64,000 nt of DNA from Candidatus Omnitrophota bacterium (GTDB lineage Bacteria > Omnitrophota > Gorgyraeia > Zapsychrales > JBDRMG01), in assembly GCA_043812495.1 (NCBI GenBank), contig JBDRMG010000016.1:2137-66136 (forward strand). Reading direction: 5' to 3'. Positions 24,130-42,499 of this stretch are shown one piece after another. Every line of letters starts with the position of its first letter. The stretch's first letter is position 1. A model generated the notes under the pieces. The model searched no databases and was not told the origin of the DNA. It worked only from the letters and a program-made list of their open reading frames with translations. The position numbers and the translations under genes were made by a program.

Positions 24130-24852
24130 TTACATGCGGAATTTCTCACCCAGATAGAGTTCCTTGGCCTTGGGATCGTTGATCAATTGATCCGCCGTGC
24201 CGGAAATCAAAACCTTTCCGTCGGCAATCAAGTACGACCGATCGGTGATGGAAAGGGTTTCGCGCACATTATGGTCTGTTAATAAAATTCCTAAGCCTCT
24301 ATTTTTCAAATCTTTGATGATTTCCTGAGCTTCGGCCACGACAATCGGATCAATCCCCGAAAAAGGCTCATCCAAAAGAATAAAAGACGGATTGGTGACA
24401 AGCGCCCTCGTAATCTCAAGGCGCCGGCGTTCCCCTCCGGAAAGCGTATAGGCCCTGCTTTTCGCTAAATGGGCGATGTTGAGTTCTTCCAACAATGAGG
24501 CGAGCCTGCGCTTGCGCTCGCGCGGGCTGATTTCCAAAGTTTCTAAGATTGCCATGATATTCTCTTCAACCGTTAATTTACGGAAGATGGACGGTTCCTG
24601 CGCCAAGTACCCGATTCCCAGATGCGAGCGTTCGTGAATCGATTTTCGGGTGATATTTTCCTGATCAAAAATAATCTGGCCTTCATTAGGCTGGATAATG
24701 CCGACCACCATATAAAAGGTGGTTGTTTTTCCGGCGCCGTTGGGTCCCAAAAGCCCGACGATTTCCGAACGCCGAACGGAAATGCTCAGGCCATCGACAA
24801 CCCGCCGGCCGCCATATATTTTGACAAGATTATTCGTCTCCAAAAGATACAT
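24130..24852 (-). CDS. lptB: LPS export ABC transporter ATP-binding protein
   Basis: Walker A GPNGAGKTT, the signature LSGGERRRLEI and Walker B ILLDEP, 240 aa, adjacent to lptA/C. Confidence 0.92.
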   Translation of the reverse strand: MYLLETNNLVKIYGGRRVVDGLSISVRRSEIVGLLGPNGAGKTTTFYMVVGIIQPNEGQIIFDQENITRKSIHERSHLGIGYLAQEPSIFRKLTVEENIMAILETLEISPRERKRRLASLLEELNIAHLAKSRAYTLSGGERRRLEITRALVTNPSFILLDEPFSGIDPIVVAEAQEIIKDLKNRGLGILLTDHNVRETLSITDRSYLIADGKVLISGTADQLINDPKAKELYLGEKFRM

Positions 24853-25678
24853 CGGAGCCTTCCTCTGCGTAAAAAATCAATTTTGGCCGCCCGGACAGAA
24901 TCACCCTTTGATGTTCAGCTTTATACACGGCCTTTTCAGAATAGCTGGCATTATCTCCCTGGAAAATCTTCACATTTCCGGTACAGATCATTTCTGTAAT
25001 CTTATTGGATTGAGAATCAAAAAAGACTTCCATCTTGTCCGCCAAAAGCCGGCGATCTCCGTCAACAGCCACAACATTATTGTTGAAAATGGCGTTTTGT
25101 TCTTCATAATTGATTTCCAAAGGACCATCGCATGTAATAGTAATTTTTCTTTTCCCTTTGTCCTTCGATTCAACATCAACCGTAACACTAACTTCTTCGT
25201 TGAGTTGAGCTGCGTTTAAACCCGGGTTGGCCTTGGCTCCCTTGCCAACGGCGAGCATGCTCTCTTTTTTGATGACGACTTCGTCGTCCGTGCTGACTAA
25301 GTCCACATCTCGTTCCCAATTCAGCGAATCGGTCACCAGGGTCGCGCCGCTTTCCGTTGTGATAATCACATCGTTTTCAAGAAACATATTTCCGCTTGTC
25401 TTGTTCATGGTTCCGTCTTTAGCCGTTAAATGCATAACATCTTCACCATAGTTATTGGCGACAATATTTTTTATCTTAATGGTCTCTCCCAGAATATCTG
25501 CTGAATCTCCCTTGACATCCCAAGATTTCTGCCCTGTTCCATTGAAGCCGGATAAGGTAAAGCCTTCGAATTGCTGCGGTGTTTCTTCAGCGGCCGCAAG
25601 CCCTGCTGAGCAAAGAATAACGGCCAAAAGGAGGGTAATGCTTTTTAGCATGCGTAACGCTCGATCACTTTCTGCCAT
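24830..25678 (-). CDS. LptA/LptC (OstA-like) periplasmic LPS transport protein
   Basis: Signal peptide followed by OstA-like beta-jellyroll repeats, 282 aa, in an lptC/A-lptB context. Confidence 0.7.
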   Translation of the reverse strand: MAESDRALRMLKSITLLLAVILCSAGLAAAEETPQQFEGFTLSGFNGTGQKSWDVKGDSADILGETIKIKNIVANNYGEDVMHLTAKDGTMNKTSGNMFLENDVIITTESGATLVTDSLNWERDVDLVSTDDEVVIKKESMLAVGKGAKANPGLNAAQLNEEVSVTVDVESKDKGKRKITITCDGPLEINYEEQNAIFNNNVVAVDGDRRLLADKMEVFFDSQSNKITEMICTGNVKIFQGDNASYSEKAVYKAEHQRVILSGRPKLIFYAEEGSDVSFGDE

Positions 25679-26160
25679 TTGCCCTGCGCCTTTAAGATCA
25701 ATTCAACAACTTCACGGACCGCGCCTTCGCCGCCTTTGCGCAGGGTGATATAATCCGCTTCTTTCTTGGCCTCCTGGCATGCGTTGGCCACGCAAACGGC
25801 AAAGCCGACACGCTTGAGAATCTGAAGATCAATCAGATCATCGCCGATAAAGCAAACATTCTCATCTTTGACTTTGAAATAACGCAGCAGCTTCTGATAA
25901 GCGCCGATTTTGGGATCCGCATTCTGATAAACCTTATCAATCTTTAATCCCTTGGCGCGTACATTCACAACCTTGGAATATCGCCCGGTCAAAAAAGCAG
26001 TTTTGATGCCTACGCGCTTAGCCAAAACAAGGGCAAAACCGTCATAAATATCAAAACTTTTTATCTCCTGGCCCCGGCTGTCCAAAGTAATCTTGGCATC
26101 GGTAAGAACGCCGTCGACATCGCAAACCAAAACCTTAATTTTTTTAATAGCCTCATTCAT
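25645..26160 (-). CDS. kdsC: 3-deoxy-D-manno-octulosonate 8-phosphate phosphatase
   Basis: HAD motif VLVCDVDGVLTD and a GDDLIDL motif. Confidence 0.88.
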   Translation of the reverse strand: MNEAIKKIKVLVCDVDGVLTDAKITLDSRGQEIKSFDIYDGFALVLAKRVGIKTAFLTGRYSKVVNVRAKGLKIDKVYQNADPKIGAYQKLLRYFKVKDENVCFIGDDLIDLQILKRVGFAVCVANACQEAKKEADYITLRKGGEGAVREVVELILKAQGKWQKVIERYAC

Positions 26161-26167
26161 CGTGTCA

Positions 26168-27127
26168 TCAAACCAATCCTGCTTTAAGGATGTCTTGGAC
26201 ATCCAGGAGACCGACGCACTTTTTCTTCTTATCCACTACGGGAATTTCATCAATTTTATGGTCCTGAAGGATCTTTAAGGCCTCGGCGGCCAAATGATCC
26301 TTGAGGATCGCCTTGGGATTTTTGGTCATCACTTCCTTGACTCTTCTTTTCAAAATATGGGAATCAATCTCCAGCTGGCGTCGCAGATCTCCGTCGGTAA
26401 AAATCCCGACAAGCTGTCCTTTGGAATTAACGACGCACGCCGAACCACAGCGAGCACGCGTGATGGCGAGCATAACATCTTTAACGCACGTCTGTTCTCT
26501 GACCCGCGGATTATAGGAACCGGTGCGCATAATATCTTCGACCTTTAAAAGCAAACGACGACCCAAAGCCCCTCCGGGATGAAAAACGGCAAAATCTTCT
26601 TTCTTGAACTTTTTTCGATCGATCAAGCAAGCGGCTAAAGCATCGCCCATGACTAAGGTTGCTGTCGTAGAGGCCATCGGAGCTAACCCAAGAGGACACC
26701 CTTCTTGTTTGACAGAGACATCTAAAACAACATCGCTATATTTGGCAAGGCTTGACTTAAGGTTGCCTGTCATAGCGATAGTCTTCACTCCCATCTTTTT
26801 CATAAAAGGAAGAAGCTTCTTGATTTCAACTGTCTCTCCGCTGTTAGAAATCAAAATACAAACGTCTTGATAAGTGACTTGCCCAAGATCTCCGTGAATG
26901 GCTTCGGCGCAATGCATCCAAATGCTCGGCGTTCCTGTCGAAGATAAAGTGGCTGCAATTTTGCGGCCGATAATTCCTGTTTTACCCATACCTGTTACAA
27001 TCACTCGGCCGCGGGATTTCATAATCAAATCAACAGCGGCAACAAAATTCTTATCCATGCGCTTTGTTAACGCTCGAATGGCATCGGCCTCGATGCGCAC
27101 AACTTCTTTGGCTCTTTTAATAGACAT
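26168..27127 (-). CDS. kdsD: Arabinose-5-phosphate isomerase (KpsF/GutQ family)
   Basis: SIS domain (VTGMGKTG, SNSGET) plus a tandem CBS pair, 319 aa. Confidence 0.9.
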   Translation of the reverse strand: MSIKRAKEVVRIEADAIRALTKRMDKNFVAAVDLIMKSRGRVIVTGMGKTGIIGRKIAATLSSTGTPSIWMHCAEAIHGDLGQVTYQDVCILISNSGETVEIKKLLPFMKKMGVKTIAMTGNLKSSLAKYSDVVLDVSVKQEGCPLGLAPMASTTATLVMGDALAACLIDRKKFKKEDFAVFHPGGALGRRLLLKVEDIMRTGSYNPRVREQTCVKDVMLAITRARCGSACVVNSKGQLVGIFTDGDLRRQLEIDSHILKRRVKEVMTKNPKAILKDHLAAEALKILQDHKIDEIPVVDKKKKCVGLLDVQDILKAGLV

Positions 27128-27141
27128 TCTTATCCCCTTAA

Positions 27142-27969
27142 TTATCGTTTCCTTTTAACAACTTCATCTATGGCCTTGAGCTCTTTGAGAAGACTTTCTA
27201 ACTCTTTAAGGGACAGCATATTTGGGCCGTCGGAAAGAGCCTTCTTGGGATCAGGATGGACTTCCATGAAAATGGCGCTGCAACCCGCCGCAACAGCGCA
27301 TCGGGCTAAAAGCGGAATAAATTCACAGTTTCCTCCGGAAGCCGTTCCTAGCCCTCCGGGCTGCTGAACGCTGTGAGAGGCATCAAAGACCACCGGATAT
27401 CCGGTTTCGCGCATGATAGCGAGTGAACGAAAATCACTCACCAGATTATTGTATCCGAAACTCACGCCTCGTTCCGTTAAAAGAATTTTTTTATTTCCTG
27501 TTTTTTCGACCTTTTTAATCACTTGCTTCATATCCCAAGGAGCCAAAAATTGTCCCTTTTTGATATTCACGATTTTCCCTGTTTGCCCGGCCGCCACCAG
27601 AAGATCTGTTTGCCGGCACAAGAAGGCGGGTATCTGGATAATATCCAGAACGCTTTTGGCGCGCAAAACCTCACCGACGCTGTGAACATCACTTAAAACA
27701 GGAACACCGACCTTGTCTTTAACGTCTTTGAGAATTCTCAAACCTTTATCAATGCCCAGCCCGCGAAACGATGCAATCGAAGTCCGGTTCGCTTTGTCAT
27801 AACTCGCTTTAAAGATAAAAGGAATCTTGAGCCGACTCGTCATTTTCTTAAGCGCTTTAGCGCTTTGAAGTGTTATTTCTTCGCTTTCAATGACGCAAGG
27901 ACCGGCAATCAAAACCAGGGGATTTTGATTGCCTAAGGAAATCTTTTGACACTTAACGACTCTATCCAT
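27142..27969 (-). CDS. kdsA: 2-dehydro-3-deoxyphosphooctonate aldolase (KDO8P synthase)
   Basis: LIAGPCVIES, KASYDKANR and DASHSVQ motifs. Confidence 0.93.
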   Translation of the reverse strand: MDRVVKCQKISLGNQNPLVLIAGPCVIESEEITLQSAKALKKMTSRLKIPFIFKASYDKANRTSIASFRGLGIDKGLRILKDVKDKVGVPVLSDVHSVGEVLRAKSVLDIIQIPAFLCRQTDLLVAAGQTGKIVNIKKGQFLAPWDMKQVIKKVEKTGNKKILLTERGVSFGYNNLVSDFRSLAIMRETGYPVVFDASHSVQQPGGLGTASGGNCEFIPLLARCAVAAGCSAIFMEVHPDPKKALSDGPNMLSLKELESLLKELKAIDEVVKRKR

Positions 27970-28708
27970 TTTCCGCTTCCCTCTTTAACAATTTTTCTGC
28001 TTCAAAAAGATCTTCTCTGACATCGATACCGGCTGTCGGACGGTCTGTTTCCACGGTTTTAATTTTGGTACCGGCCTGCAGAATCCTTAACTGCTCGAGT
28101 TGCTCTACTTGCTCCAACTGTGAGTGAGGTAAGCCTTTAAAAGACATCAAGAATTTTCTTCGGTACGCATAGATTCCCAAATGTTTGTAATAACCAATCG
28201 TTTTTGTAGCCATTTTAGCGCGGTTAAAGGGGATCACAGAGCGCGAGAAATACAGCGCATAATGATCCTTATCGATAACAACTTTGACAATATTCGGATT
28301 TTCCAATTCTTTTTCATAATCGATCGCTTTAATGGCGGTTGCCACCATGCAGGAGCGATCCTCTTTTAAGGCCTTGACCAAACCATCGATAATGCTGTGA
28401 TGAATTAAGGGTTCATCGCCTTGGATATTCACAATGATGTCAGCCTCTAAATCCTTGGCCGCCTCAATAAGACGGTCAGACCCCGACGGATGATCTTTGC
28501 TTGTCAAAATAGCCTTGGCTTTAAACTCTTTCGCCTTAGCAAGAATTCTTTCGTCATCGCAGGCAATGATCAGATCCTTGAGCGCCTTGCTTTGCTTGGC
28601 CCTCTCCCAAACATGTTGAAGCACGGGTTTCCCGCAAAGATTGGCTAAAACCTTGCCTTCAAAACGCGTTGCTCCGTAACGAGCGGGAATAATGCCAATG
28701 GCTCTCAT
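27962..28708 (-). CDS. kdsB: 3-deoxy-manno-octulosonate cytidylyltransferase
   Basis: IIPARYGATRFEGK and QGDEP motifs, 248 aa. Confidence 0.92.
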   Translation of the reverse strand: MRAIGIIPARYGATRFEGKVLANLCGKPVLQHVWERAKQSKALKDLIIACDDERILAKAKEFKAKAILTSKDHPSGSDRLIEAAKDLEADIIVNIQGDEPLIHHSIIDGLVKALKEDRSCMVATAIKAIDYEKELENPNIVKVVIDKDHYALYFSRSVIPFNRAKMATKTIGYYKHLGIYAYRRKFLMSFKGLPHSQLEQVEQLEQLRILQAGTKIKTVETDRPTAGIDVREDLFEAEKLLKREAENG

Positions 28709-28719
28709 GAAATCCTCAC

Positions 28720-29745
28720 CTACGATTTGATAGCTGCTAAAAGTTCTTTCTTGGCAACAGGCACAGCCCCTGTCTTAGCGACAACAATGCCGGCCGCATA
28801 ATTCGAAAGATCCGCCGCTTCTTTTTTCGTCGCTCCGGCCGTGAGGCTAAGCGTAAAGACAGAAATCACCGTATCCCCGGCACCTGAAACATCGAAGACT
28901 TCTCGGGCTTTGGTATTGATATGGACCGGTTTCTTGCCTTTTTCAAATAGACGCATGCCAAGCTCGCCCAGAGTAATCAATAGAGAATCCAAATTCAGAT
29001 ACTTCACTAAAGCGCTTCCGGCGCTATCAATATCTTGATCTTTTTCCAGCTTCAGAGCGGAAACGGCCAGGCGTCGTCCGGCATGGTGCGTCATTTTAAT
29101 ATTCTGGATGGCGTTTTCGGTTTCTTTTTTATTGGGCGTAATCGCGGTCACGCCGTTATAATAGCGAAAATGCTCCACCTTGGGATCAACGGTAAAAATT
29201 TTCTTTTTCTGAATCGCTAAGGTGCACGCCTGGGTCACCAAAAGAGGCGTGATTATACCCTTTCCGTAATCAGAAATGATGATAGCATCGCATTTCGGGA
29301 TTTGATCTTTTAAAAATTTGAGAATCTTTTGGCTGAGAAGTCCCTCGTCTTGATCCTTGATTTTTTCCCGGTCAATTCGGACAACCTGTTGATGCTGGGC
29401 GATGATACGCGTTTTCATCGAGGTCGGTATTCTTCTGTCGACAAAAACACCGCGCGCGGAAACCTTGTTTTTCTTAAGCTCGCGCAGAAGGATCTTGCCT
29501 TCGGCGTCCGAGCCGATTCTTCCCGCTAAAATAGCCTCTGCTCCAAGGCTGCTTAGGTTGCTGGCCACATTCGCCGCACCTCCTACCATAAAAGCCGAAC
29601 GGCCTTCTTGGAGCACAACGGGCACAGGGGCTTCGGGAGAAATGCGGGAAACCGTTCCACGGATATACTGATCCAAAATAATATCGCCGATCACAAGGAT
29701 CCGCTTTCCCTTAAACTTGGAAATAAGCTGCGTGTAACGTTCCAT
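28720..29745 (-). CDS. D-beta-D-heptose 7-phosphate kinase (RfaE/HldE domain I, PfkB family)
   Basis: PfkB ribokinase-like fold ending in the DVSGAGDT anion-hole motif, 341 aa. Confidence 0.85.
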   Translation of the reverse strand: MERYTQLISKFKGKRILVIGDIILDQYIRGTVSRISPEAPVPVVLQEGRSAFMVGGAANVASNLSSLGAEAILAGRIGSDAEGKILLRELKKNKVSARGVFVDRRIPTSMKTRIIAQHQQVVRIDREKIKDQDEGLLSQKILKFLKDQIPKCDAIIISDYGKGIITPLLVTQACTLAIQKKKIFTVDPKVEHFRYYNGVTAITPNKKETENAIQNIKMTHHAGRRLAVSALKLEKDQDIDSAGSALVKYLNLDSLLITLGELGMRLFEKGKKPVHINTKAREVFDVSGAGDTVISVFTLSLTAGATKKEAADLSNYAAGIVVAKTGAVPVAKKELLAAIKS

Positions 29746-30006
29746 GGGGACCTTCTTTCTTAGAGAAAAATCGGAATAAAAAGGTTACGGATAACGGCGA
29801 GAATCTTTTTTCTTTTTATTCGAAACAAGCGTTAATTTTAGCATAGTTTAAATTGGTCGTCAACTGCTTCTAACATATACTAATAAAAGAATTTCCGACT
29901 AGATTTATAGGCTAGGAGACGTTGTTTAAAGTATTGAATTTTTCCATTGGGAAGAAGGGATGTTGATTAAAATATTAAAGTTGGCTCCGGAAATTACTTT
30001 AATACT

Positions 30007-30141
30007 TTAATCTTCGTCCCTCAAAAAACCTAATTGCGGGGATTCTGATGTATCTTCCGAAAGACCTAACAAAAGCGGCAGGTTGGCGGGAACGATTTGA
30101 AAAATAACCGGCGCAAAGCCGTCGATTTTGATGGTATGAAT
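30007..30141 (-). pseudogene. Degenerate remnant of a giant-gene 3' end (encodes ...IKIDGFAPVIFQIVPANLPLLLGLSEDTSESPQLGFLRDED*)
   Basis: About 80 percent nucleotide identity over ~113 nt to the last codons of the 2405-aa gene at 31528..31640, with higher identity at the peptide level. An in-frame TGA lies 10 codons upstream and there is no ATG. Confidence 0.7.
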
Positions 30142-30362
30142 CCCCGCGGGCAAGTCCCTGGTTCCATTTTTATTACGTGAGCTTCACTCACGAAAAACCT
30201 TTGGCAACCCACCACGGGTAAACCCGTGGTCTGTCTTTTCGCAATTATGAGCGGATCTATTCTGCGAAGCTGCAACGTGAAAACTTTGCAGCGGAGCAGA
30301 ATCAATGAACCACTCTCAAATATGCCTGGAGATACAAAAATGGTGGCGTATTATTCTTTGCA

Positions 30363-30773
30363 TTATTTCTGAATCACTATGGATTTTATCCAATTCAGAA
30401 ACCTCTCTGCGTGTTTTGATAAATTAACCGCTTCTCTTTGGGTGATTAACCTCTGATCATATTCCACAACGCTCTTCATGGAAACAAGATGCCGTAAATG
30501 GTTCATGTTTTCATCCGCAGCTTTATGTTTTACCAAGCTTGAAAAAAGCTTAAGAATATCATCGTGTTTGGGGCTGATACTTCTTATCCCATGCAAAGCA
30601 ACTAATAAGGCATCTGCGGAAGATATTCCGGCATGGATGGCATTTAAGCCCGCGGCATTCCATTTTCCCCTACCCAGGCTCTCTTGCGCACTTGAGAGAA
30701 ATTCCTCAGCCTTTTTTAGGTAGTTAATATAATCCGACTTGGGTAAATGTGCGGTTCTTATTTTTTTAACCAT
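30363..30773 (-). CDS. HEPN-domain protein (toxin-like component of a HEPN/MNT pair)
   Basis: 136 aa and all-helical, with an Rx4-6H-type motif (RSISPKH). It overlaps the upstream MNT gene by 8 nt. Confidence 0.7.
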   Translation of the reverse strand: MVKKIRTAHLPKSDYINYLKKAEEFLSSAQESLGRGKWNAAGLNAIHAGISSADALLVALHGIRSISPKHDDILKLFSSLVKHKAADENMNHLRHLVSMKSVVEYDQRLITQREAVNLSKHAERFLNWIKSIVIQK

Positions 30774-31392
30774 TGTAAGTGATTAATTCAGCTACGCTTT
30801 TGCCATAAATGACTTTACCCGTTCGGATAATCTCTTTGAGAAAACGGTCCTCTTTTTTTAATTTTCTCTGAAATTCATCTATCCTGAATGATGAGCATGC
30901 CAAGTGATTCCCAAAAAGCACAGTTATTTTCTTTTCCGCCTTGGACAGTTGCCTGGCGAGAAGTGCCTTGTCTGTTGGATAAGGGGCAATAATAGCCATA
31001 TCGATATCGCTGTCTGCGGAAGCATTTCCTTTGGCGAAGCTGCCAAAGAGAATAATGCTCAAGGGCCGTATAGATTTTATTGCCCTTAAAATAATCCTGG
31101 CAATATGTTCAAAGACGTGACTCTCTTTTTCAAAAGCCGGCCGGATAATTTCTTTAACCAAGAAATGCTCCTCGTTCAGCCAGTAAACAAGAGAATTACC
31201 CAGGGAACGCATGTTCACTATGCCGTGGCTGGTTAAATCCTTCAAAGCCGTGTGCGCTTTGACATGGGATATTCCGATATTCTTGGCAATCTCCCGCCCG
31301 TTCATCTGGGCTTGAACATTGATAAGGAAACGAAGTATTTTTACCTTTGAAGTCTGTCCAAAAATATCATCAAGCGGCCTGTTTAACAGCAC
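30766..31392 (-). CDS. Nucleotidyltransferase (MNT-type) with an N-terminal winged-HTH, GTG start
   Basis: Minimal nucleotidyltransferase motif ILFGSFAKGNASADSDIDMAII and an N-terminal HTH (REIAKNIGISHVKAHTALKDL). AAGGAGG lies 6 nt upstream of the GTG. Confidence 0.75.
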   Translation of the reverse strand: MLLNRPLDDIFGQTSKVKILRFLINVQAQMNGREIAKNIGISHVKAHTALKDLTSHGIVNMRSLGNSLVYWLNEEHFLVKEIIRPAFEKESHVFEHIARIILRAIKSIRPLSIILFGSFAKGNASADSDIDMAIIAPYPTDKALLARQLSKAEKKITVLFGNHLACSSFRIDEFQRKLKKEDRFLKEIIRTGKVIYGKSVAELITYNG

Positions 31393-31436
31393 ACTCTGCC
31401 TCCTTTATATGGTAACTTTTATTAACATTCGGTATT

Positions 31437-31467
31437 TATTATTACCATGTAAATTGTCTCTTGTCAA
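31437..31467 (-). promoter_or_regulatory. Sigma70-type promoter for the MNT-HEPN operon (TTGACA, 17 nt, TAATAAT)
   Basis: The minus strand reads TTGACAagagacaatttacatggTAATAAT about 45 nt upstream of the MNT start. Confidence 0.6.
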
Positions 31468-31513
31468 GGTCTTTATTTGAGCTTTTTTCGTGTTTCGAGA
31501 TGCGACCGGTATC

Positions 31514-34500
31514 TTATCGCAAAAGACCCAACTGCGGGGATTCTAATTCGTCTTCTGAAAGGTCTAATAAAAGCGGCAGATTGGTGGGAACGATTTGAAA
31601 AATCACCGGGCTAAAGCCGCCGATTTGGATGGATTGGATAGATTGAGGATCGATTGGTATGCTAAAATCTACTCCCGCGCCTTGAGTTTGGAGTTCTAAT
31701 ATATTTGGATTGAGGTCAATACCGCCGACCTTCTCTGCTGCGATATGGTCTTGCCCTTCAACAATAACTCTATCTAATTGTTCTGCCTGTACGAAATCTT
31801 CCTGCGCTTCGTCAACTGATCCAGAATTCCCTCGGTCAAATAAAGCCTGTCCAGTTGCAAAGAAACGCATAATATTAAGCAACTCATTCGGCATTTCAAT
31901 ATGATTCATTTCAAGAATATGAAAGAACCACAACAATTTTTGTCCAACACTGTTTTTTGATTGCAACACTTGAGTGACCAGTTCGTTCCGGATATCTCTA
32001 TTCAATGTGCCACCGAGCTCTTGAATTATATTTTCCAAAACATCCTTTTGGCTATCGCGGACGGCCACCATTAATTTTCCCAGCAACCGCCGATTATTTT
32101 TGTTAAGTCCAAAAGATGCTCCTGCATCAATCAAAACAATACGAACTCGACCGTTCTCGCCCTTCTGTATCAAAATATTTCCCAAGTGAGGGTCTCCGTG
32201 ATAAAAGCCCTCATAGAAAATTTCCCGTAATAGTTCATTGGCCACAGCCAATTCGACATCCTTCTGATCAACCCCTGACTCCTGCACGCGTGCTTCATTC
32301 GACAATTTAATACCATCAATGTATTCCATAACAATTAGTGAATTGTTAAAGACCTCAATTATCTGCGGAACATAAAATTCATAGTCCCCTCTTACCTCTC
32401 CCAATCGAGTGTCACCAAATAATTTCTTTAAAGAAAACTCCTTAATTCTCTTCAATACGGTTCGCTGAACCCGGGAACCTAATTCGGCCGTATTCTTTGC
32501 CTCCTGCTCAAAATCCAGTTCTTGCCGAAACCCTTCTTCTAGCTGTGAAATGAAATTATCCGGTATAACAATTCCTTCCTCCACAAAAGCCGAACGTAAG
32601 TCATCATCGAAGACATCCTTCAAAAACTTCATGTCGGCCTCAATAGTCTTATCGACTTCGGATCGTTTAACTTTGATAGCCACTATTCTGCCATCGCGCA
32701 TCTTGGCTCGATAAACGCCAGCAATTTTTGCACTGCCCAAAGGTTCTTCAATGCTCTCAAACTGTCCCGTCAAATCAAATTTTTCCAACATATCAAAGAC
32801 CACTCCTTTATCCATCCTGCGAGCACTGTCTTGAACCAGCGACAATTCATCCCGCATAACCGGAGTGACCCACAAAGAACGAGCCAAAACTTGTGCCAGT
32901 TGGCGACCGACTAATCCAAGCGACTCCAGAAACATACGCACTGCACGAGCCTCTTGCCTCTCCGGAGTGATGTTTGGCTGACCAGCTTGCATTTCACCAC
33001 GCTGTAAGGACAAAGTCCAGGCTAACGAAAGAAAAATTTCCTCACGGCGAGATTGGTCAGCTTTCTCAAAAACCTTATCAAAGACTTTTTTTAGAACGCT
33101 CTTATTCGGACCATCTTTGATTAGGAAATCAAACATGCCGTCCAGCAAATTTGACATGGCTGTGGGATCATTAAAAATGCCTTTTTCGCCATATAGAAAC
33201 GGCTCCAGAGCCTCCCGTTGTGACGACTGACCAGCCAAAGGATAATATTTGCTCTGCCTTCGGCCAAAATCTTCTCGCATGCTATCTGCATTAACGTGGA
33301 AATTATATTCGAAATCAATAAGGAAAAACGGCTTCTCGTCTGTGATGCCCATAAGCCAAAGAAGAAGATGCGCTTTCTCAGTTGGGCTGCGATCCTTCAT
33401 CCATGCGCGAAATACATCAGCATGCATTGCCGTTCGCGCCGTTTCTTTAAGATCCAAATCTTTGGTCTTTTTGAACGGATCAAGATAAAGCGCTCTGACC
33501 TGCTCGTATTGCTCACGCGTCTTTGTCAAGAATTGTGCTGTCTCTGAAAGAATATCATCCCTGATTAACGAAGCTTCTGGGAAGAATCTCTGAATTTTCT
33601 GAAGAACATCATCCAACGTTCCAAATTCTTCAGGATGTTCCGTGCGATATTGATCAAAGACGCCTAACGCCAGATTATCCCGCAATTCGCGGTTATGAAC
33701 CATCGCCAGCAGTTTTTCAATCTCATCGACGGTCTTGTCTCGACCCTCAGCCTGAATTGCCTCTTTAATCCATTTGTCCCTTACCAATGATGATTGCGGA
33801 TAATACTTTTCAATAGATTCTCTTTTAGAAGCCAATGATAACTCTGAAAAACCGATGATGTTTCTCATTTCCTCTTCGGCCAAACGGCTAACAAACACAT
33901 ATAATTGAGCAACGGGTCCTCCCGGATTAGAATAAATCATATCATCGTAATCACCACTCTCCTGATTATGCTCTTGGCGAATAGCAGTCTCATCTAATTG
34001 AGGAGCATTTTTGGAGTATCGATCTCTCCAATAGGCCGCCACAGTTGCTTCATTAGACTTTTCCATAATTCCATCATGAACAAAATATGGCGCGATTGCC
34101 GCTATGGCCGATAAAACACCCGCTCTTTCATCTGTCGATAGCCCGGCAAGATGCATCTGCATCCTTTTAATATCAAAAATTGCGTCGTTATGGCCAGTAT
34201 ATCCGGCCTGATTAATAAGCACCCGATTGACGAAAAGCATATAAAGAACAAAATTTTTGAATACTGATGGCGGCATCTCTCGAACTACCACATCAACAGC
34301 CTCCTCGTAATCTGCAGGAAGCAAAGCGATAAAATCAAATAACCGCATAAAATCATCAAAGGCAATTTCCTCTCTCATGAAGCGAACCGCGTTCCTAGGT
34401 CGTTGCTTAGTGGCTTGTTTGGTATAGTCAGCCTCTTCAGAAACCCCCTTGCCTGAAATGTCTCCGGCAAATACACGCCAAACACTACTCCCAAGCCTGA

Positions 34501-37500
34501 CATCATCCTCTTTAAGTCTCACGTCATAACCAAGCTCCACGAACAGTGCCTGCAAATAAACCGGCGCCGTATACTTTCCAAAGGCCTCTTCTTGCTGTTC
34601 CGGTGTTGAATCTTTTTCAGATAATAATTGACCAATCGAATGGCGATTACGCTCCAGTAACTCCTTGATCAAGCCAAATTCATCGTTGTTAACATTTTCG
34701 ATTCTCCGTTCAGGATTAATCTCATTCCAACGATCAAAAATCTTGAGCCGATCCTTGTTAGATAAAGCATTATATCGTTCTGATAAATCTTCTTCATCAT
34801 AAACTGGACGCTCAGGCTCGGCGTTTTTGATAAAGGAAATAATTTGTGGATCAGAAAACATGCTTCCCTTTTTTTCTCTAACACGCAATGCACCGAAAAT
34901 AAAATTTCTCAAATTCTTTCCTTCCGGGATTCCCCCCCCCAGGGCAATAACATAAAAAATTGGTCTTAATTCGCGTCGTGTCCTCTCAATTAAAGGCCTA
35001 AACTCCTTGGGTATATGCTCAAAAAGAACTCTTTCAAAAGCATCACCAGTAAACATTTGACTATCTCCACGTGCCCTTAGCCAAAGATCGCGGAAAATAC
35101 CCAAATCATTATTGATGTGTTCTTCTCTAAATTTCGTGAAAATCTTTTGATGCACAAGAACAAGCTCTTCAGAAGAAACTTTGTTGGCTTTTGCATGCGC
35201 GGCTTCAACAAAAACTTTCAATACATTCTGCATATTCTTAACAATGTTTTTATTCGCCAATAAACTGTCCAAGTATTCTATCCTGCTTCCCAGAAAGACG
35301 ATGCCTTGGCCTTCCTTAAATAGAGTTTGTATATCCAACTTTATAAACTCGGCTCTTAATGAATTCCACCCATCATCCCGACGTAAAAGCCAGTCCATAA
35401 GTTCCTTCTTTGCGTCAGGAGAAGTATTGCGAGCAAGTTTGTATAATTCCTCGGCAAGTCCGTCCGCTTTTAATGCATAATTGACCTTGGTCCCTAAAAT
35501 TTCATAAACACGAATCAGGAGCCTGATGTCTTCTGATTCTAACTGACTTCGATAAACAGTGGATGAAGTCAAGACTGATGCCATTTGACTTAACGGTTCA
35601 GCAAATAAATAACCTTTGAAGTACCCTTGTGAATCCTGCATATCTATCAAGTCAGTAAGAAAATGGCGGGCCTGTTCTAATGTCAGTTTGCCTTGCTGGG
35701 CATCCTTAACCATTCTTATATACAATCCATACAGGAAGCCGCTGGCATAGTGCTTAAATCGATCACTCGCACGCCTTGGCCCTTTCATAGGAAGGACATA
35801 AGAATCGAGCCTTGAAAGAACTCTTTTAGCTTGTTCATGTCGATCATTCATCTTTTGTTTCTCCACATCAATTGACATAGAGAAAATACCCGGAACGCCT
35901 AGTTCATAAATTTGAACGATCGTTTCAGGGGATAATAACTGACCAAGGCCAAGAAAAGAATTCATGTCTGAGCTTAAATCTTCTCTCTTTAGTCCAAGCA
36001 TCACATAGATTTCATCCCTCATATATTTAAATAAAACTTGTTTGGCTTCATCCTCACCGGAAAATTCTTTTATCCGTTGTTCAAATACCGTTTGAGCTAG
36101 AAGATAAAATTGCTTTTCAGTATCAGGTAAAACCTCATAACCAATCAACATCGCAAAATGCAATTCTTCAATTGTCTTTGCCTCATTCAATAAGGATATG
36201 AGATTCGATGTGTTTGTAACATTGATAACTCTTTCTTGAAATTCTCTAAATCGCGTTCTTTGTTGAGAAAGGGGAACAGATTTTAATGCCGTAGGCGGGA
36301 CGTCTTGATTCTGCCAGTGATATGTCAGGATCTGGTGCTGCAACTTTCTTAAACGTTCTTCTATTTGGGGGTGAGTGCCCCAAAAAGCGTCACGTTCGCC
36401 GCGTGCCGTCAGCCAATGCTCTATGCCAGCAAGAATATGTGGCGCCGACCTAACTGAAAAACCAGCTCTGTCCATCAACCACAAAGCTAATAAGTCACTC
36501 TGATATTCCTTGCCTCGATCTTCCGCATGACGATCTATCAATCTTTTCTTTTCATCAAACCGACCTTCATCAATTTCGCGACGGTTCTGCATAATATGCA
36601 AAATTTCATGAGACAAAACCCAAGCTAACGCATCTTGCGTTACATCAAGATTATTAGTGCTCGCATATTCCGTGAGCATACGAATAAGCCCCAAATTAAC
36701 TACGATAGTATTATAATAATTCACGACATAGGCATTAGGATCAGTCGTATCCGCGAGGAAAAATTGAAATTCTTGTGGGTTCAGTCCCTGAGCAATTAAT
36801 AATCGGTCTATAACACTACGTACCTCATCATATAACGTCTGAAACTGCTCGAAATCTTCCTTCCCAGGAGCAATGAAGCGATCAACGACATCCTTTTGTT
36901 TCAGAAACTTTTCTTTACGATCAACGTCTCGGTTATATTCGCTCTGAGATTTTAAAGGTGTCCCCGGAATAGTTTTTCCAACCTTTTTCCTGTCCGATAC
37001 AGGAACTCTTCGGATGCTAGGACTGATTATATCCCTTCTCGCAACCTCATATTCTTGCCGGGCGGTTTCTTGATCAATCTGCTGATCGCCGGCCCGTAAT
37101 CTCTGGCGTGCGTTATTGTGGGCGATAATCCAATGCTTCCCTGCTTTTCTTTCCTGAACTTCCTCTCGCTCAAGGTCAAGCTGCTGATCAATTTCACTTT
37201 CAAAGACAATGATTTTCCAAATCTCGTCTGTGCCTTTAAAGTTAATCGCCTGAACGCCACCCTTCGGATCCATGACCCATCTTTGAATGGCTTTTCCTAA
37301 ATCCGTTTCCTTAACCGCATCTGAAATGACAAAAACGCGGACATCGTTTTCTTCATCCATTGTCTCAGCAATTAATCCTTGTTGTTCGAGATGGCCTAAA
37401 ATAAACTCTAGAATTTGATCTTCAGTGGCATCATTTGCAACTTCGGGAACATTCTCACTCCTAGCCAGAATATTTATTAACCTACGAAAGCGGTCTAGAT

Positions 37501-38731
37501 TTTTGACAGGATCTAAAACAGTCGAAACTGTTCTTAGCGATCCGGCTGTTGTTTCATTTGCTTTGGCTAAAGTTTCAACTCCACTCTTTGATTCAACTGA
37601 AAGAGCTTCATCAATTGCCTTTCCTCGGAACTCCATCCCGCCAGAAAAATATTTCCTGGGTATAATCTGTCGAGTTGTTGGATCATAATCTTCTTTGATG
37701 TAGTTATAAACGCCTACTTTAAACGCTTCGACATACTGTTGATAAATTTTTTCTCTAACCTTCTTGTCCTCAATGTCAACCCCACTGACTTTATTTTCAC
37801 CAACATAAACTTTTCCCAAAAGACTTTCTTTAAGATTACGCTTAAACCATGTGGCCAGAATCATGGAATGATATATCTGACGCAATAATGAAAAGTTTTC
37901 TCCGTTATTAACCTCTTTCTCAATCTCCGGGATAATGACTTCTCTCACAATTTCAGAAGAAATATTGCTGAGTTGTTCAACATCCTCTTCATCTAACTTA
38001 TCCGTGCCAATTGTTTCTTTGTTTAGATTTTCCTTGAGAGCAAGATAATCCCCTTCCAGCATGACTTTTAAATGGCTTTCAATAATAAAAGCCGTATCTC
38101 CGGTCTCGTACACAAGAGCTTTTTCCGGAACAACCCAGACTTTATTGAAAGTATTTATTGGTATTTCTGCCGTCCCATAACGCTCGCGCGCCTTCTCATA
38201 GACTCGATTCCAAAACTGTTCCCCTAATTCGTCTTCAGGATAAATCAACGAAGCCGTTAATTGCTTGAGGATATAGTCCTGGCCCAACAAATCCCTGCCC
38301 ATTTCAGTAATACCTAATTGATCAGGGATAATTCTATCCTGTTCATAAGGGGATAGATTGACCCATAATTCGTCCTCTGGCACCGTTAGGGAAGCCAGGA
38401 AATATTTGATAAGTTTGGAAGATTCTGTCTGTAAAGTTTCATCCTCGAATTGAGCGCTGCCTGTATCTATGATGAAATCAAATCGAAGAGGATTATTCAC
38501 AAAGATCTTGATACCTTTTATAACGGCAGGGGTAAAATTCGGGGTTGGCATAACCATAGCTCCGACCGCAGGAAGATTCAACAGACCCTGGGCATGAGCA
38601 GGCGGTGGCGGGGTGATGAGGCTTGAGAGAAACGCCAGAATAACAAAAGACACAGCGCATCTGTAAGGGGCCCTGGAGGTAGCGTTTGATTTTCGGCTTT
38701 GAGAAAGCATCCCTTTAATATGAATATTCAT
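31514..38731 (-). CDS. Giant 2405-aa secreted multidomain protein with an M48-like zinc-metalloprotease segment and a C-terminal ABC1/UbiB-type atypical kinase domain
   Basis: A single uninterrupted ORF. The N-terminal signal peptide is hydrophobic (AVSFVILAFLSSLI), then PPPPAHA/QG. Around aa 690-720, DPNAYVVNYYNTIVVNLGLIRML...ALAWVLSHEILHIMQ follows the M48 NAF...GLL...HEXXH pattern. The C-terminal ~300 aa match ABC1 motifs: LGSAKIAGVYRAKMRDGRIVAIKVKRSEV, FYHGDPHLGNILI and LIDAGASFGL. Confidence 0.85.
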   Translation of the reverse strand: MNIHIKGMLSQSRKSNATSRAPYRCAVSFVILAFLSSLITPPPPAHAQGLLNLPAVGAMVMPTPNFTPAVIKGIKIFVNNPLRFDFIIDTGSAQFEDETLQTESSKLIKYFLASLTVPEDELWVNLSPYEQDRIIPDQLGITEMGRDLLGQDYILKQLTASLIYPEDELGEQFWNRVYEKARERYGTAEIPINTFNKVWVVPEKALVYETGDTAFIIESHLKVMLEGDYLALKENLNKETIGTDKLDEEDVEQLSNISSEIVREVIIPEIEKEVNNGENFSLLRQIYHSMILATWFKRNLKESLLGKVYVGENKVSGVDIEDKKVREKIYQQYVEAFKVGVYNYIKEDYDPTTRQIIPRKYFSGGMEFRGKAIDEALSVESKSGVETLAKANETTAGSLRTVSTVLDPVKNLDRFRRLINILARSENVPEVANDATEDQILEFILGHLEQQGLIAETMDEENDVRVFVISDAVKETDLGKAIQRWVMDPKGGVQAINFKGTDEIWKIIVFESEIDQQLDLEREEVQERKAGKHWIIAHNNARQRLRAGDQQIDQETARQEYEVARRDIISPSIRRVPVSDRKKVGKTIPGTPLKSQSEYNRDVDRKEKFLKQKDVVDRFIAPGKEDFEQFQTLYDEVRSVIDRLLIAQGLNPQEFQFFLADTTDPNAYVVNYYNTIVVNLGLIRMLTEYASTNNLDVTQDALAWVLSHEILHIMQNRREIDEGRFDEKKRLIDRHAEDRGKEYQSDLLALWLMDRAGFSVRSAPHILAGIEHWLTARGERDAFWGTHPQIEERLRKLQHQILTYHWQNQDVPPTALKSVPLSQQRTRFREFQERVINVTNTSNLISLLNEAKTIEELHFAMLIGYEVLPDTEKQFYLLAQTVFEQRIKEFSGEDEAKQVLFKYMRDEIYVMLGLKREDLSSDMNSFLGLGQLLSPETIVQIYELGVPGIFSMSIDVEKQKMNDRHEQAKRVLSRLDSYVLPMKGPRRASDRFKHYASGFLYGLYIRMVKDAQQGKLTLEQARHFLTDLIDMQDSQGYFKGYLFAEPLSQMASVLTSSTVYRSQLESEDIRLLIRVYEILGTKVNYALKADGLAEELYKLARNTSPDAKKELMDWLLRRDDGWNSLRAEFIKLDIQTLFKEGQGIVFLGSRIEYLDSLLANKNIVKNMQNVLKVFVEAAHAKANKVSSEELVLVHQKIFTKFREEHINNDLGIFRDLWLRARGDSQMFTGDAFERVLFEHIPKEFRPLIERTRRELRPIFYVIALGGGIPEGKNLRNFIFGALRVREKKGSMFSDPQIISFIKNAEPERPVYDEEDLSERYNALSNKDRLKIFDRWNEINPERRIENVNNDEFGLIKELLERNRHSIGQLLSEKDSTPEQQEEAFGKYTAPVYLQALFVELGYDVRLKEDDVRLGSSVWRVFAGDISGKGVSEEADYTKQATKQRPRNAVRFMREEIAFDDFMRLFDFIALLPADYEEAVDVVVREMPPSVFKNFVLYMLFVNRVLINQAGYTGHNDAIFDIKRMQMHLAGLSTDERAGVLSAIAAIAPYFVHDGIMEKSNEATVAAYWRDRYSKNAPQLDETAIRQEHNQESGDYDDMIYSNPGGPVAQLYVFVSRLAEEEMRNIIGFSELSLASKRESIEKYYPQSSLVRDKWIKEAIQAEGRDKTVDEIEKLLAMVHNRELRDNLALGVFDQYRTEHPEEFGTLDDVLQKIQRFFPEASLIRDDILSETAQFLTKTREQYEQVRALYLDPFKKTKDLDLKETARTAMHADVFRAWMKDRSPTEKAHLLLWLMGITDEKPFFLIDFEYNFHVNADSMREDFGRRQSKYYPLAGQSSQREALEPFLYGEKGIFNDPTAMSNLLDGMFDFLIKDGPNKSVLKKVFDKVFEKADQSRREEIFLSLAWTLSLQRGEMQAGQPNITPERQEARAVRMFLESLGLVGRQLAQVLARSLWVTPVMRDELSLVQDSARRMDKGVVFDMLEKFDLTGQFESIEEPLGSAKIAGVYRAKMRDGRIVAIKVKRSEVDKTIEADMKFLKDVFDDDLRSAFVEEGIVIPDNFISQLEEGFRQELDFEQEAKNTAELGSRVQRTVLKRIKEFSLKKLFGDTRLGEVRGDYEFYVPQIIEVFNNSLIVMEYIDGIKLSNEARVQESGVDQKDVELAVANELLREIFYEGFYHGDPHLGNILIQKGENGRVRIVLIDAGASFGLNKNNRRLLGKLMVAVRDSQKDVLENIIQELGGTLNRDIRNELVTQVLQSKNSVGQKLLWFFHILEMNHIEMPNELLNIMRFFATGQALFDRGNSGSVDEAQEDFVQAEQLDRVIVEGQDHIAAEKVGGIDLNPNILELQTQGAGVDFSIPIDPQSIQSIQIGGFSPVIFQIVPTNLPLLLDLSEDELESPQLGLLR
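31528..31640. repeat. Direct repeat copy 2: the 3' end of the giant gene, duplicated in diverged form at 30029..30141
   Basis: The two segments were aligned by eye at ~80 percent identity. The pair brackets the HEPN/MNT cassette. Confidence 0.7.
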
Positions 38732-40435: not shown

Positions 40436-41503
40436 TTAAGCCTCTGATTTGGATCTTTCAGGAAGGGAAATTAAGGATTCCACGGCCCGGAAGACCTCTC
40501 GCGCTTCAATTGCCTGAAGACACGAGAGGCAGGATTCCTCATCGCTTTGCGCGCATTCTTCGCACCCCTGGTCACGGTGGATCGCAAAAGCCTTTTGGCC
40601 TAAAGGACGCCAGCGCGTATGACTGATACCACCGCTTCTATGGCCAAATATGGAAATCACAGGGGTGCCTACGGCGCTCGCAATATGCACAGGACCCGAA
40701 TCATTGGAAATGAGCAAGCAGCTTTGACGTAAAAGACAAACCAGTTGACCCACGGTCGTTAGGGCTACGGCATCCATAAAGGGCCACCGGCATGAGGACT
40801 TGATCGCATCAGCGATTTCCTGGGTCTCCAACCCTCCTATGAGCATCATGCGGACAGAATATTTTTCTCGGATAAGACCAATCAATTCCGCGAACTTTTC
40901 AGGCGGCCAGCGTTTGGTTTCGTCGCTGCCACCTGGATGGATGGCGATAAAAAGATCCTGGCCTTTAATATTATGCTCAACGAGAAATTGCTTTACCCAC
41001 ATTTCGTTTCGTGTTTTGATGGGAACATGGAGATTCATATAATTGGTGGCCTTAATGCCCAGCGCCTCGAGTAAATCAAGACAATACTGCGCTTCGTGCT
41101 TTGTCCCTAAAGGACGGTCGTCTTGAATCTTTTTCGTCAACAAAAAACCGAATTTGTTGTTGTGATATCCGACTCTTTCCGGAATCCCGGCCAAGAAGCA
41201 AATCAAATTGGTCCTTTTTTTCGTGTGATAGACAATCGCACAATCAAATTTTTTCTTTCTTAAGGCAAAAATAAATTTCCAGAAACGGATGGGTCCTTTG
41301 TCTTTTTCCTGGCGATCATACACAATCACTTCATCAAGATAAGGATTTCCGTCAACCAGTTCCACCGTCGCGGGTGTGACCATAAGTGAAATTTTTGACT
41401 TTGGATAGGCTTGGCGAAGATACGCCAAGGCCGGTGTTGTGAGGATCACATCCCCGATTCTGTCGGTGCGTACAACGAGGATATTTTTCAAAGGCTTAAT
41501 CAT
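40436..41503 (-). CDS. Glycosyltransferase family 9 (LPS heptosyltransferase)
   Basis: N-terminus ILVVRTDRIGDVILTTPAL and a C-terminal GT9 motif (ISNDSGPVHIASAVGTP), 355 aa. Confidence 0.85.
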   Translation of the reverse strand: MIKPLKNILVVRTDRIGDVILTTPALAYLRQAYPKSKISLMVTPATVELVDGNPYLDEVIVYDRQEKDKGPIRFWKFIFALRKKKFDCAIVYHTKKRTNLICFLAGIPERVGYHNNKFGFLLTKKIQDDRPLGTKHEAQYCLDLLEALGIKATNYMNLHVPIKTRNEMWVKQFLVEHNIKGQDLFIAIHPGGSDETKRWPPEKFAELIGLIREKYSVRMMLIGGLETQEIADAIKSSCRWPFMDAVALTTVGQLVCLLRQSCLLISNDSGPVHIASAVGTPVISIFGHRSGGISHTRWRPLGQKAFAIHRDQGCEECAQSDEESCLSCLQAIEAREVFRAVESLISLPERSKSEA

Positions 41504-41509
41504 GAATTT

Positions 41510-42499
41510 TTATTTCAAAAGTGAATGGATTTCAATGACATGAACGATATCGTCCAGCGTAATCTGCGCCATGCAGGTATGCTGGTCATTTTTTTTGGGA
41601 CGCTCGCAAGCCGGGCAATTCTCATTTTTTCTTACGGCAAAACTTTGCGCACTCCATGGTCCGTAAGTACCCGGATCCGTCGGGCCAAACAAAGCCACAA
41701 TAGGCCGGTCCAGATAGCTGGCCAAATGCATCACCGCGCTATCATTGGCCACCACAAGGCAGCATCGCTTAAGAAGCGCTGCCAGTTGAATAAGCGTCGT
41801 TTGGCCGCATAAATTTATGCACGGATTTTTCATCTTTTTGATGACGGCGTTTGTGGTTTTCTCATCCGCTTGATCCCCCACAAAAATAACCTTCACTTGA
41901 TAGCGTCCCGTGATTTCATCCGCCAGGCCCGCAAAACCATCCGGCGCCCATCTTTTCTTTTCATCCGCGGCTCCGGCGTTGATCACGACAAATCGTTTTT
42001 CTGCCCCCAGCTTCGCCTGGATCATGCGATCCGCGGAATCGCTAATGTCTTTGGGAACAGAAAAAACGTATGAGTGATCAGCTTCTTGAGGAAAATCATA
42101 AACGGTTTTTAATTGTTTGAGGTGCTTGCTTTTCCTGTGCAGCCCTTTGGGTCCGGCCACAAAGAAAGATGTTCGGTATTTTGATCCAATCAAGAAAGGA
42201 ATGGCAGTATTGCGCAAATCAACCGCTAAATCAAATTTTTCTTTTCTCAAATTCAAAATCCATCTCAGCTTATAGGAAATCGACCCGTATTTGTCAAATG
42301 TATAGGCGCGAACAATCGCAGGATTGTCGTTGACTAGCGCCAAGGCCTTGGGCCCGACGATCACGGATAATTTAGCCAAGGGAAAGTTTTCCTTGAGAAT
42401 ATCCATGACGGGAAACGTCAAGATGACATCCCCCAAATTGCTCAGAGAAATGACAAGGATTTTCTCGACGTCAGATTTTTTTAAACGCTTCGCATACAT
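41510..42499 (-). CDS. Glycosyltransferase family 9 (LPS heptosyltransferase)
   Basis: ILVISLSNLGDVILTFP and ANDSAVMHLASYLDRP motifs, 329 aa. Confidence 0.85.
   Translation of the reverse strand: MYAKRLKKSDVEKILVISLSNLGDVILTFPVMDILKENFPLAKLSVIVGPKALALVNDNPAIVRAYTFDKYGSISYKLRWILNLRKEKFDLAVDLRNTAIPFLIGSKYRTSFFVAGPKGLHRKSKHLKQLKTVYDFPQEADHSYVFSVPKDISDSADRMIQAKLGAEKRFVVINAGAADEKKRWAPDGFAGLADEITGRYQVKVIFVGDQADEKTTNAVIKKMKNPCINLCGQTTLIQLAALLKRCCLVVANDSAVMHLASYLDRPIVALFGPTDPGTYGPWSAQSFAVRKNENCPACERPKKNDQHTCMAQITLDDIVHVIEIHSLLK

Follow-up and report, generated by a model that had tools for sequence, protein, structure and literature searches.

The last 120 nt of a giant gene from a Candidatus Omnitrophota bacterium are present twice in the window, by which we mean the whole 64-kb stretch of DNA that was analyzed. 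The two copies form a direct repeat that ends at the stop codon and exactly brackets an MNT-HEPN toxin-antitoxin cassette. An insertion or recombination scar, which a first-pass annotation of this DNA had put forward as its alternative explanation, is the best reading of the arrangement. We consider it fairly probable that the downstream copy, here called the remnant, is the displaced and no longer used 3′-end of the giant gene, and that one copy marks the left and the other the right junction of the insertion.

A repeated gene end around a toxin-antitoxin cassette

The features of the window that are relevant here are the following.

28720..29745, minus strand: pfkB-type kinase gene (ORF list)
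29956..30021, minus strand: hairpin with 26-nt arms, overlapping the stop codon of the remnant (repeat search)
30007..30153, minus strand: open reading frame of the remnant as called mechanically, 48 aa, TTG start (ORF list)
30019..30150, minus strand: remnant, which repeats the last ~40–44 codons of the tail in truncated form and has no promoter (PAGIHTIKIDGFAPVIFQIVPANLPLLLGLSEDTSESPQLGFLR; blastn, tblastn, blastx, repeat search)
30154..30362, no strand: non-coding structured spacer of 209 nt, from the HEPN stop to the remnant
30363..30773, minus strand: HEPN-domain toxin gene, overlapping the MNT gene by 8 nt (PF05168, E 1.3e-11)
30766..31392, minus strand: MNT-type antitoxin gene, winged-HTH plus nucleotidyltransferase, with a GTG start and an AAGGAGG Shine-Dalgarno sequence
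31404–31415 and 31442–31453: 12-nt inverted repeat (TTTATATGGTAA / TTACCATGTAAA) around the promoter −10 element
31438..31467, minus strand: sigma-70-like promoter of the cassette's own, TTGACA-18-AATAAT, 11/12
31514..38731, minus strand: giant gene, 2,405 aa, with a signal/TM segment, the family N-domain, Peptidase_M48, an ABC1/UbiB-type kinase and the tail
31517..31726, minus strand: tail module at the C-terminus of the giant protein, complete at ~70 aa (GGIDLNPNILELQTQGAGVDFSIPIDPQSIQSIQIGGFSPVIFQIVPTNLPLLLDLSEDELESPQLGLLR), of which the last 120 nt, 31520–31639, are the repeat copy
31556–31558 and 31619–31621, minus strand: deviant codons of the giant tail, for the D of LLLD and the G of IGGF (family consensus comparison)
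37637..38599, minus strand: conserved family N-terminal domain, ~330 aa, residues ~45–365 (alignments)

The giant gene, the MNT and HEPN genes, the open reading frame of the remnant and the pfkB-type kinase gene all lie on the minus strand. When the 3′ region of the giant gene was used as blastn query against the 64-kb window, the only significant second copy was found at 30022..30134, aligned with 31520..31632 (84.2% identity over 114 nt, E 2e-26). A repeat blastn of the pair gave 83.2% identity (E 9e-29), and the repeat search gave a direct repeat of 120 nt, 30022–30141 and 31520–31639, with 82% identity and a spacing of 1498. The duplicate with about 80% nucleotide identity that had been noted earlier is thus real, at 82–84%, but the coordinates then assigned to it (30029..30141 and 31528..31640) place the copies 1499 nt apart instead of 1498; aligned in that earlier register, they are only 39% identical.

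Both copies are in frame and match the family profile, and the two peptide strings first quoted for the remnant and for the end of the giant protein are exact. In tblastn the remnant is 72.7% identical to the giant tail over 44 aa (E 1e-16). The homology sets in abruptly inside the tail, at the codons I-Q/H-S/T-I, and ends with the stop codon; upstream, the remnant has no counterpart of the first half of the tail (GGIDLNPN...DPQS). The longest run of identical nucleotides, 18 nt (ATTTTTCAAATCGTTCCC), lies in the middle of the repeat rather than at the homology boundary. The giant open reading frame is whole and carries the full 70-aa tail, and the remnant consists of ~40–44 homologous codons with no family sequence upstream of them: blastx of 29746–30400 against 251 collected family proteins gave matches to tails only and none outside 30013–30156. 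At two near-invariant positions of the family it is the giant tail that deviates (IDGF to IGGF and LLLG to LLLD), and the remnant keeps the consensus at both. The hairpin at the remnant stop codon is probably the original 3′ hairpin or terminator of the giant gene; no terminator-like hairpin was found 3′ of the present giant stop at 31514. The TTG start of the remnant has no Shine-Dalgarno sequence and the spacer no promoter-like site upstream of it, from which we infer that the remnant is not expressed.

The copies flank the MNT and HEPN genes, as had been recognized at first reading, and the bracketed interval also contains the 32 nt that follow the giant stop and the 209-nt spacer. Neither an integrase nor a transposase gene was found between the repeats, where MNT, HEPN and the non-coding spacer are all that is present. 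The MNT protein matches the Polbeta and NTP_transf_2 families of Pfam and has its GSx10DxD motif (GSFAKGNASADSDID) at residue 117, and the HEPN protein has an R-x5-H motif (RSISPKH) at residue 64, so that the pair shows all the characters of an MNT-HEPN toxin-antitoxin system, namely a GSx10DxD nucleotidyltransferase, an Rx4-6H HEPN protein and a shared operon. The 12-nt inverted repeat at the promoter could plausibly be an operator to which the MNT protein binds with its HTH domain.

The block of promoter, MNT and HEPN is 72–75% identical in nucleotide sequence to cassettes in five other Omnitrophota loci (L010–L014). The homology runs from 31467–31481 to about 30384–30411, that is, it stops ~20–50 nt short of the HEPN stop codon. 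Among the unrelated neighbors of these five cassettes are restriction-modification, ParE, Fic and pyrimidine biosynthesis genes, and at none of the five loci were tails nearby or flanking direct repeats found. The presence of the same cassette among unrelated neighbors indicates a free-standing and widely scattered module whose link with a tail is peculiar to the locus studied here; the same five loci rule out the idea that the cassette is an element that targets tails. About a hundred homologues of the HTH-MNT/HEPN cassette exist at 58–76% protein identity, the named ones mostly from Omnitrophota. Most of them lie on contigs of 1–5 kb, which suggests strain-variable or repeated regions that break assemblies. 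The cassette in L010 sits within a defense-type island with DpnI restriction-modification, ParE and Fic genes.

On either strand the spacer (30154–30362) is predicted to fold far more stably than its shuffled counterparts (z −4.1 and −5.6). Rfam contains no credible match to it, and it is absent from the five other cassette loci. On its plus strand it contains a GC-rich hairpin at 30211–30230 followed by a T-run.

The tail and its protein family

In the giant protein, for which NCBI has an identical entry annotated from a Candidatus Omnitrophota MAG, Peptidase_M48 covers residues 636–716 and the ABC1/UbiB-type kinase residues 1988–2229. A word-indexed search with the last 79 residues of the giant protein yielded seven short proteins that carry the same sequence, and a profile of the tail was built from them. 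Among 1.84 billion cluster representatives this profile had 2,751 matches at E ≤ 1e-3, and 543 at the stricter threshold of E ≤ 1e-10. Among the best 153 of the 2,751 matches the tail was at the extreme C-terminus every time (153/153), with the GFxPVI core 20–87 residues (median 34) from the end, in proteins of 61 to 4,628 aa. The consensus is GGIDLNPxxLxLQxxGxGxxFxxPxDPxxLxxIxIDGFxPVIxQIxPxTNLPLLLG; downstream of it comes an acidic and variable stretch of 10–40 residues that often ends in (Q/E)LSxx(R/K/N). The tail is a widespread conserved C-terminal module, and these numbers bear out the suggestion of the first-pass annotation that it is functional and under selection. That annotation had also named a lack of other carriers as part of the grounds against its reading, and the search found thousands.

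In nearly all its carriers the tail is accompanied by a second conserved region. The 46 tail carriers that were aligned have in common an N-terminal region of ~330 residues, placed after a signal/TM segment and marked by the motifs MGRDLLxQDYxLKQLTASLxYPE, TFNKVWIxP, LRQIYxSxILAxWFK and PRKYFSGG; this N-domain is present in the giant protein, and is shared at ~55–65% identity by thousands of tail-terminated Omnitrophota proteins that are unrelated in other respects. When proteins were selected by the N-domain instead, 82 of 96 matched the strict tail pattern, and by eye 10 of the remaining 14 also end in the tail. A search with the whole giant protein returned 2,716 proteins at E ≤ 1e-20, and all named matches come from Omnitrophota/Omnitrophica or from an unclassified vent metagenome. 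Between the two conserved ends the proteins carry very different middles: M48 peptidase plus ABC1 kinase, histidine-kinase ATPase, glycosyltransferases, methyltransferases, HAD, GNAT, PP2C, Fic and sigma-70 region 4, and furthermore PGI, PGK, PGM, UGPase, malate synthase, HEAT and WD40 repeats, receiver domains and SNF2 helicases.

Neither the tail nor the N-domain sequences have a match in Pfam, NCBIfam or the PDB. For the tail no Pfam match was obtained even at E ≤ 10, and NCBIfam gave none for the giant tail region, for the short tail-bearing proteins P0001 and P0004 or for the remnant. AlphaFold predicted no secondary structure and no strands for the isolated tail, with low confidence (pLDDT 63.5, pTM 0.17); its model of the N-domain was weak (pLDDT 59.5), and Foldseek found nothing in the PDB for this model below E 0.4. 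No description of the family was found in the searched literature on large proteins of Omnitrophota or for the motif strings, and no tails were found on viral contigs. The tail would most likely serve a family of exported or membrane-anchored Omnitrophota proteins as an extended signal for recognition or docking. The sorting or secretion tag put forward in the first-pass annotation would be a reasonable function, although the tail is not built like the C-terminal sorting signals known so far.

Two arrangements of family genes were noticed outside the window.

L017 1044–2063, L018 804–1823 and L019 247–450: Y1 transposase gene in the tail, separating ...GGIDLNPNN from SLDLQTQG...LLLG
L021 2200–5787 and 6001–10980: tandem family members, each with the N-domain, with unlike tails (ending in IKGLVPLIINVAPVNNIPFLLGSGR and IDGLSPVIFQIIPTNLPLLLGISEKDEEPGQLTSLR)

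The first of these is an IS200/IS605-type Y1 transposase gene inside the tail in three assemblies. Free-standing proteins of 60–160 aa that consist of a tail only were considered as further remnants and rejected: this split tail is the one real case, and the others come from contigs of ~1–2 kb that break at the repeat, or else from frameshifted long-read assemblies (L001) or a scaffold gap (L020).

Origin of the remnant

The nucleotide differences between the two copies tell something of their history. Over a 26-codon core, the remnant matches the giant tail at 82% of nucleotides and 73% of amino acids, with 4/3/7 differences at codon positions 1/2/3; between the giant gene and its orthologue in L001 the same core is 67% identical in nucleotides and 92% in amino acids, with 4/3/19 differences. 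In a 21-codon stretch of the core, third positions differ at 5 of 21 codons between the copies and at 7–17 of 21 in comparisons with orthologues and one paralogue (11–17 for L001, L008 and L021; 7 from the giant tail and 9 from the remnant for L015, the nearest). For the whole 26-codon core the numbers are 7 between the copies and 15–19 for the others. P0025, considered for comparison as a paralogue from this genome, was set aside because its assembly did not link to the window. As the copies differ at fewer third positions than the orthologues in hand, they have a specific and more recent common origin.

It had been claimed at first that the peptide is better conserved than the nucleotide sequence, and this does not hold: over the same 44 codons the identity is 72.7% for amino acids and 76.5% for nucleotides. 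The comparison of substitution rates that had been proposed along with it was carried out and gave a dN/dS of 0.26–0.41 overall (0.28 for 44 codons, 0.41 for the core), a sample of only 40–44 codons. The differences are biased toward synonymous changes. If the 31 differences in 132 nt are placed at random, the expected amino acid identity is 55 ± 5%, compared with the observed 72.7% (p = 0.00035). The bias indicates that most of the divergence accrued under constraint at the protein level, when both copies were working gene ends, which argues against simple decay of a spare copy in place and favors two ends, from separate lineages or separate genes, that both remained in use until they were brought together. 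The open frame of the remnant, by comparison, is kept in 30% of random-mutation replicates and is therefore by itself not evidence of function. Polarized with L001 and L008, there are four derived amino acid changes in the remnant and two in the giant tail.

We suggest the following course of events. A segment of ~1.5 kb would have entered the tail-coding DNA by recombination, at a point some 40 codons short of the stop, bringing with it its own last ~40 tail codons, 32 nt, the self-promoted MNT-HEPN cassette and the 209-nt structured stretch. This could have happened by a single crossover within the tail homology, or by a site-specific event catalyzed in trans. The incoming copy of the tail would then complete the giant open reading frame, and the resident copy would have been pushed 1,498 nt downstream together with its hairpin, losing its promoter, start and upstream coding sequence; the spacer at 30154..30362 would be the far end of the inserted segment. 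The direction and the mechanism of the event are what we infer from the present arrangement. As this small segment encodes no recombinase, a homologous crossover, catalysis in trans or the eroded stump of a larger element would all be conceivable. The synonymous bias between the copies is as expected for an imported surrogate end.

The orthologous loci bear on this proposal in different ways. The nearest orthologues of the giant protein have 71–75% identity. No second tail copy was found in the orthologous loci L001, L008, L009, L015 and L016, whose flanks show no synteny with the window, and the genome and metagenome collections contained no close relative in which the site is empty; scans of genome and metagenome contigs with the last 695 aa of the giant protein gave distant ABC1 kinases only. 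Several points count against the scar: no empty site is available for comparison, the nearest orthologue being only 75% identical in protein sequence and differently flanked; no integrase or transposase gene lies between the repeats; and the homology boundary has no identical core. So does the lack of flanking repeats around the cassette at its other loci, where it evidently does not normally insert in this fashion. Across the orthologues, the 360 residues before the linker are 77–88% identical and the tails only 31–64%, a contrast between conserved bodies and divergent tails that fits replacement of tails by recombination. Mobile genes are found at several of the orthologous gene ends: in L016 (7564–13611) a tyrosine integrase gene is convergent with the giant orthologue, which has a different tail subtype (GGIDLTPANMNLQTQNAGEEIKFHLDPAMLQQLQNAPGFVPVIISIQPMGNLRAFLG), and overlaps its stop by 11 nt, and next in line come an ATPase_2/AAA_14/DUF234 ATPase gene and a TrwC relaxase gene; in L015 a fragment of a DDE transposase comes after the stop, and in L008 and L009 an excisionase-type HTH and ParE pair.

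In the window, a block of an AAA_14/DUF4143 ATPase gene, the giant gene and the MNT-HEPN genes lies inside a co-directional LPS cluster (24830–29745 and 40436–49685), with lpxK, a lipid A acyltransferase gene, four GT9 heptosyltransferase genes and GT4s on one side, and the pfkB-type kinase gene, kdsB, kdsA, and genes for a SIS+CBS isomerase, a HAD phosphatase and LptC/LptA on the other. As the orthologues of the giant gene are found in unrelated contexts, the block may itself be an insertion.

Alternatively, the remnant could be the last ~40 codons of a neighboring paralogous family gene, once present between the HEPN and pfkB-type kinase genes and since deleted. This is the main competitor, close to the first-pass idea of a paralogous cargo gene as the source of the remnant, and we regard it as unlikely, though not so unlikely that it can be set aside. 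Family genes do occur in tandem, as the two adjacent members in L021 demonstrate, and P0219 and P0228, two paralogues whose longest contigs are equal in length and may be one contig, have common lineage-specific tail ends; a deleted neighbor could therefore give the same picture as a scar, including the shared LSED..ESPQLG.LR, and the low dN/dS fits two once-functional ends equally well. On the other hand, the blastx search of 29746–30400 revealed nothing else that could belong to such a gene, and the adjacent paralogues in L021 have unlike tails. The giant tail is moreover the nearest to the remnant among the 251 collected proteins, with 72.7% identity against at most 66% over comparable lengths, although shorter partial matches to the remnant reach 69–71%. 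The position of the cassette between the two genes would also have to be a coincidence.

A local tandem duplication of the tail end with the cassette, followed by loss of the second cassette and neutral decay of the spare tail, would likewise yield a direct repeat flanking a cassette, and the larger number of derived changes in the remnant (four against two) agrees with it. We nevertheless consider it improbable, since neutral decay should have pushed the differences toward random, which is hard to reconcile with the strong synonymous bias (p = 0.00035), and since two events are needed and the 209 nt of unrelated spacer are left unexplained. Slightly less probable again is that the remnant has been kept for a purpose, as a silent gene-conversion donor for the tail (pilS-like) or as a small translated or regulatory element. 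Its frame is open over 48 codons, it keeps the consensus at IDGF and LLLG where the expressed copy deviates, and tails are evidently exchanged between orthologues; against this stand the frequent survival of an open frame under random mutation, the missing translation and transcription signals noted above and the fact that this copy is single, with no equivalent in L001, L008 or L009. We give almost no credence to chance similarity or an assembly artefact, for although the source is a metagenome-assembled genome, the match has an E of 2e-26 within the window, both copies are in frame and match the family profile, and the pair, at only 82–84% identity, shares no run of identical bases longer than 18; from the word sizes that assemblers generally use, such copies would be expected neither to collapse nor to be falsely joined.

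As an insertion scar, the repeat is of an ordinary genomic kind, useful mainly for dating and orienting the arrival of the toxin-antitoxin cassette. It matters more as a pointer to a huge Omnitrophota family with a fixed N-domain, interchangeable enzyme middles and a fixed tail. Omnitrophota are uncultured and probably host-dependent nanobacteria, for which one enrichment culture is known, and a defined profile of the tail makes the export, anchoring or delivery of their large proteins approachable. A tail that is apparently swapped between orthologues and struck by mobile elements furthermore suggests how the family diversifies. Being conserved across the family, tail-coding DNA could serve as a landing pad. 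We tentatively raise a broader possibility, which we would not press, that the tail together with the N-domain is the recognition signal of an undescribed Omnitrophota sorting, anchoring or assembly system, that tail-coding DNA is also a landing pad for mobile elements which bring replacement tails, and that the repeat in the window marks one such event. If the recognition-signal part of this were true, the system would handle thousands of large proteins with enzyme domains of cytoplasmic type.

Relation to known systems

The proposed scar would be a further example of a known phenomenon. [quoted passage not shown] The window resembles this closely in that the repeat is the 3′ coding end of the target up to the stop codon, the proximal copy completes the open reading frame and the distal copy is truncated. 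The differences lie in the element and in the target. Prophage e14 is 15 kb and has its own integrase and excision functions, whereas the insert in the window comprises 1.4 kb of bracketed DNA with a toxin-antitoxin pair and a structured spacer only; an integrase of the e14 type is absent from the bracketed DNA, and only in L016 does an integrase gene abut the end of the orthologous gene. The target of e14 is a single-copy housekeeping gene, in contrast to a module found in many genes across a phylum.

The insert can also be compared with CIMEs, as known from ICESt1/CIME of Streptococcus thermophilus, which are integrase-less remnants of integrative elements with att repeats derived from the 3′-end of a gene. 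The insert in the window is similarly short, has no genes for recombination or transfer and is bordered by direct repeats from the end of the target gene, and the related locus L016 has an integrase and a relaxase gene at the same gene end, though its kinship to the insert is only putative. The att repeats of CIMEs are short and nearly identical, whereas those in the window are 120 nt long and 82% identical.

The cassette itself is cargo and does not explain the repeat. It is like other MNT-HEPN (type VII-like) modules in its GSx10DxD nucleotidyltransferase, its R-x5-H HEPN protein, the overlap of the two genes, its own promoter and the operator-like palindrome, and it differs from them in the additional N-terminal winged-HTH domain of the MNT protein.

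For the tail, the comparison is with the C-terminal sorting domains of the PEP-CTERM/exosortase, LPXTG/sortase and T9SS (CTD) systems, which are likewise homology regions at the extreme C-terminus of many unrelated proteins. The tail is like them also in the N-terminal signal peptides of its carriers and in its restriction to one lineage. Unlike PEP-CTERM, LPXTG and GlyGly-CTERM, the tail has no C-terminal TM helix or basic cluster and its end is acidic and variable, and unlike the C-terminal domain of T9SS, a beta-sandwich of ~80 aa, it has no predicted strands and no Pfam match. What sets it apart from all of these is that it is paired with a conserved N-domain of ~330 aa, and that the cargo carried between the two consists of typical cytoplasmic enzymes.
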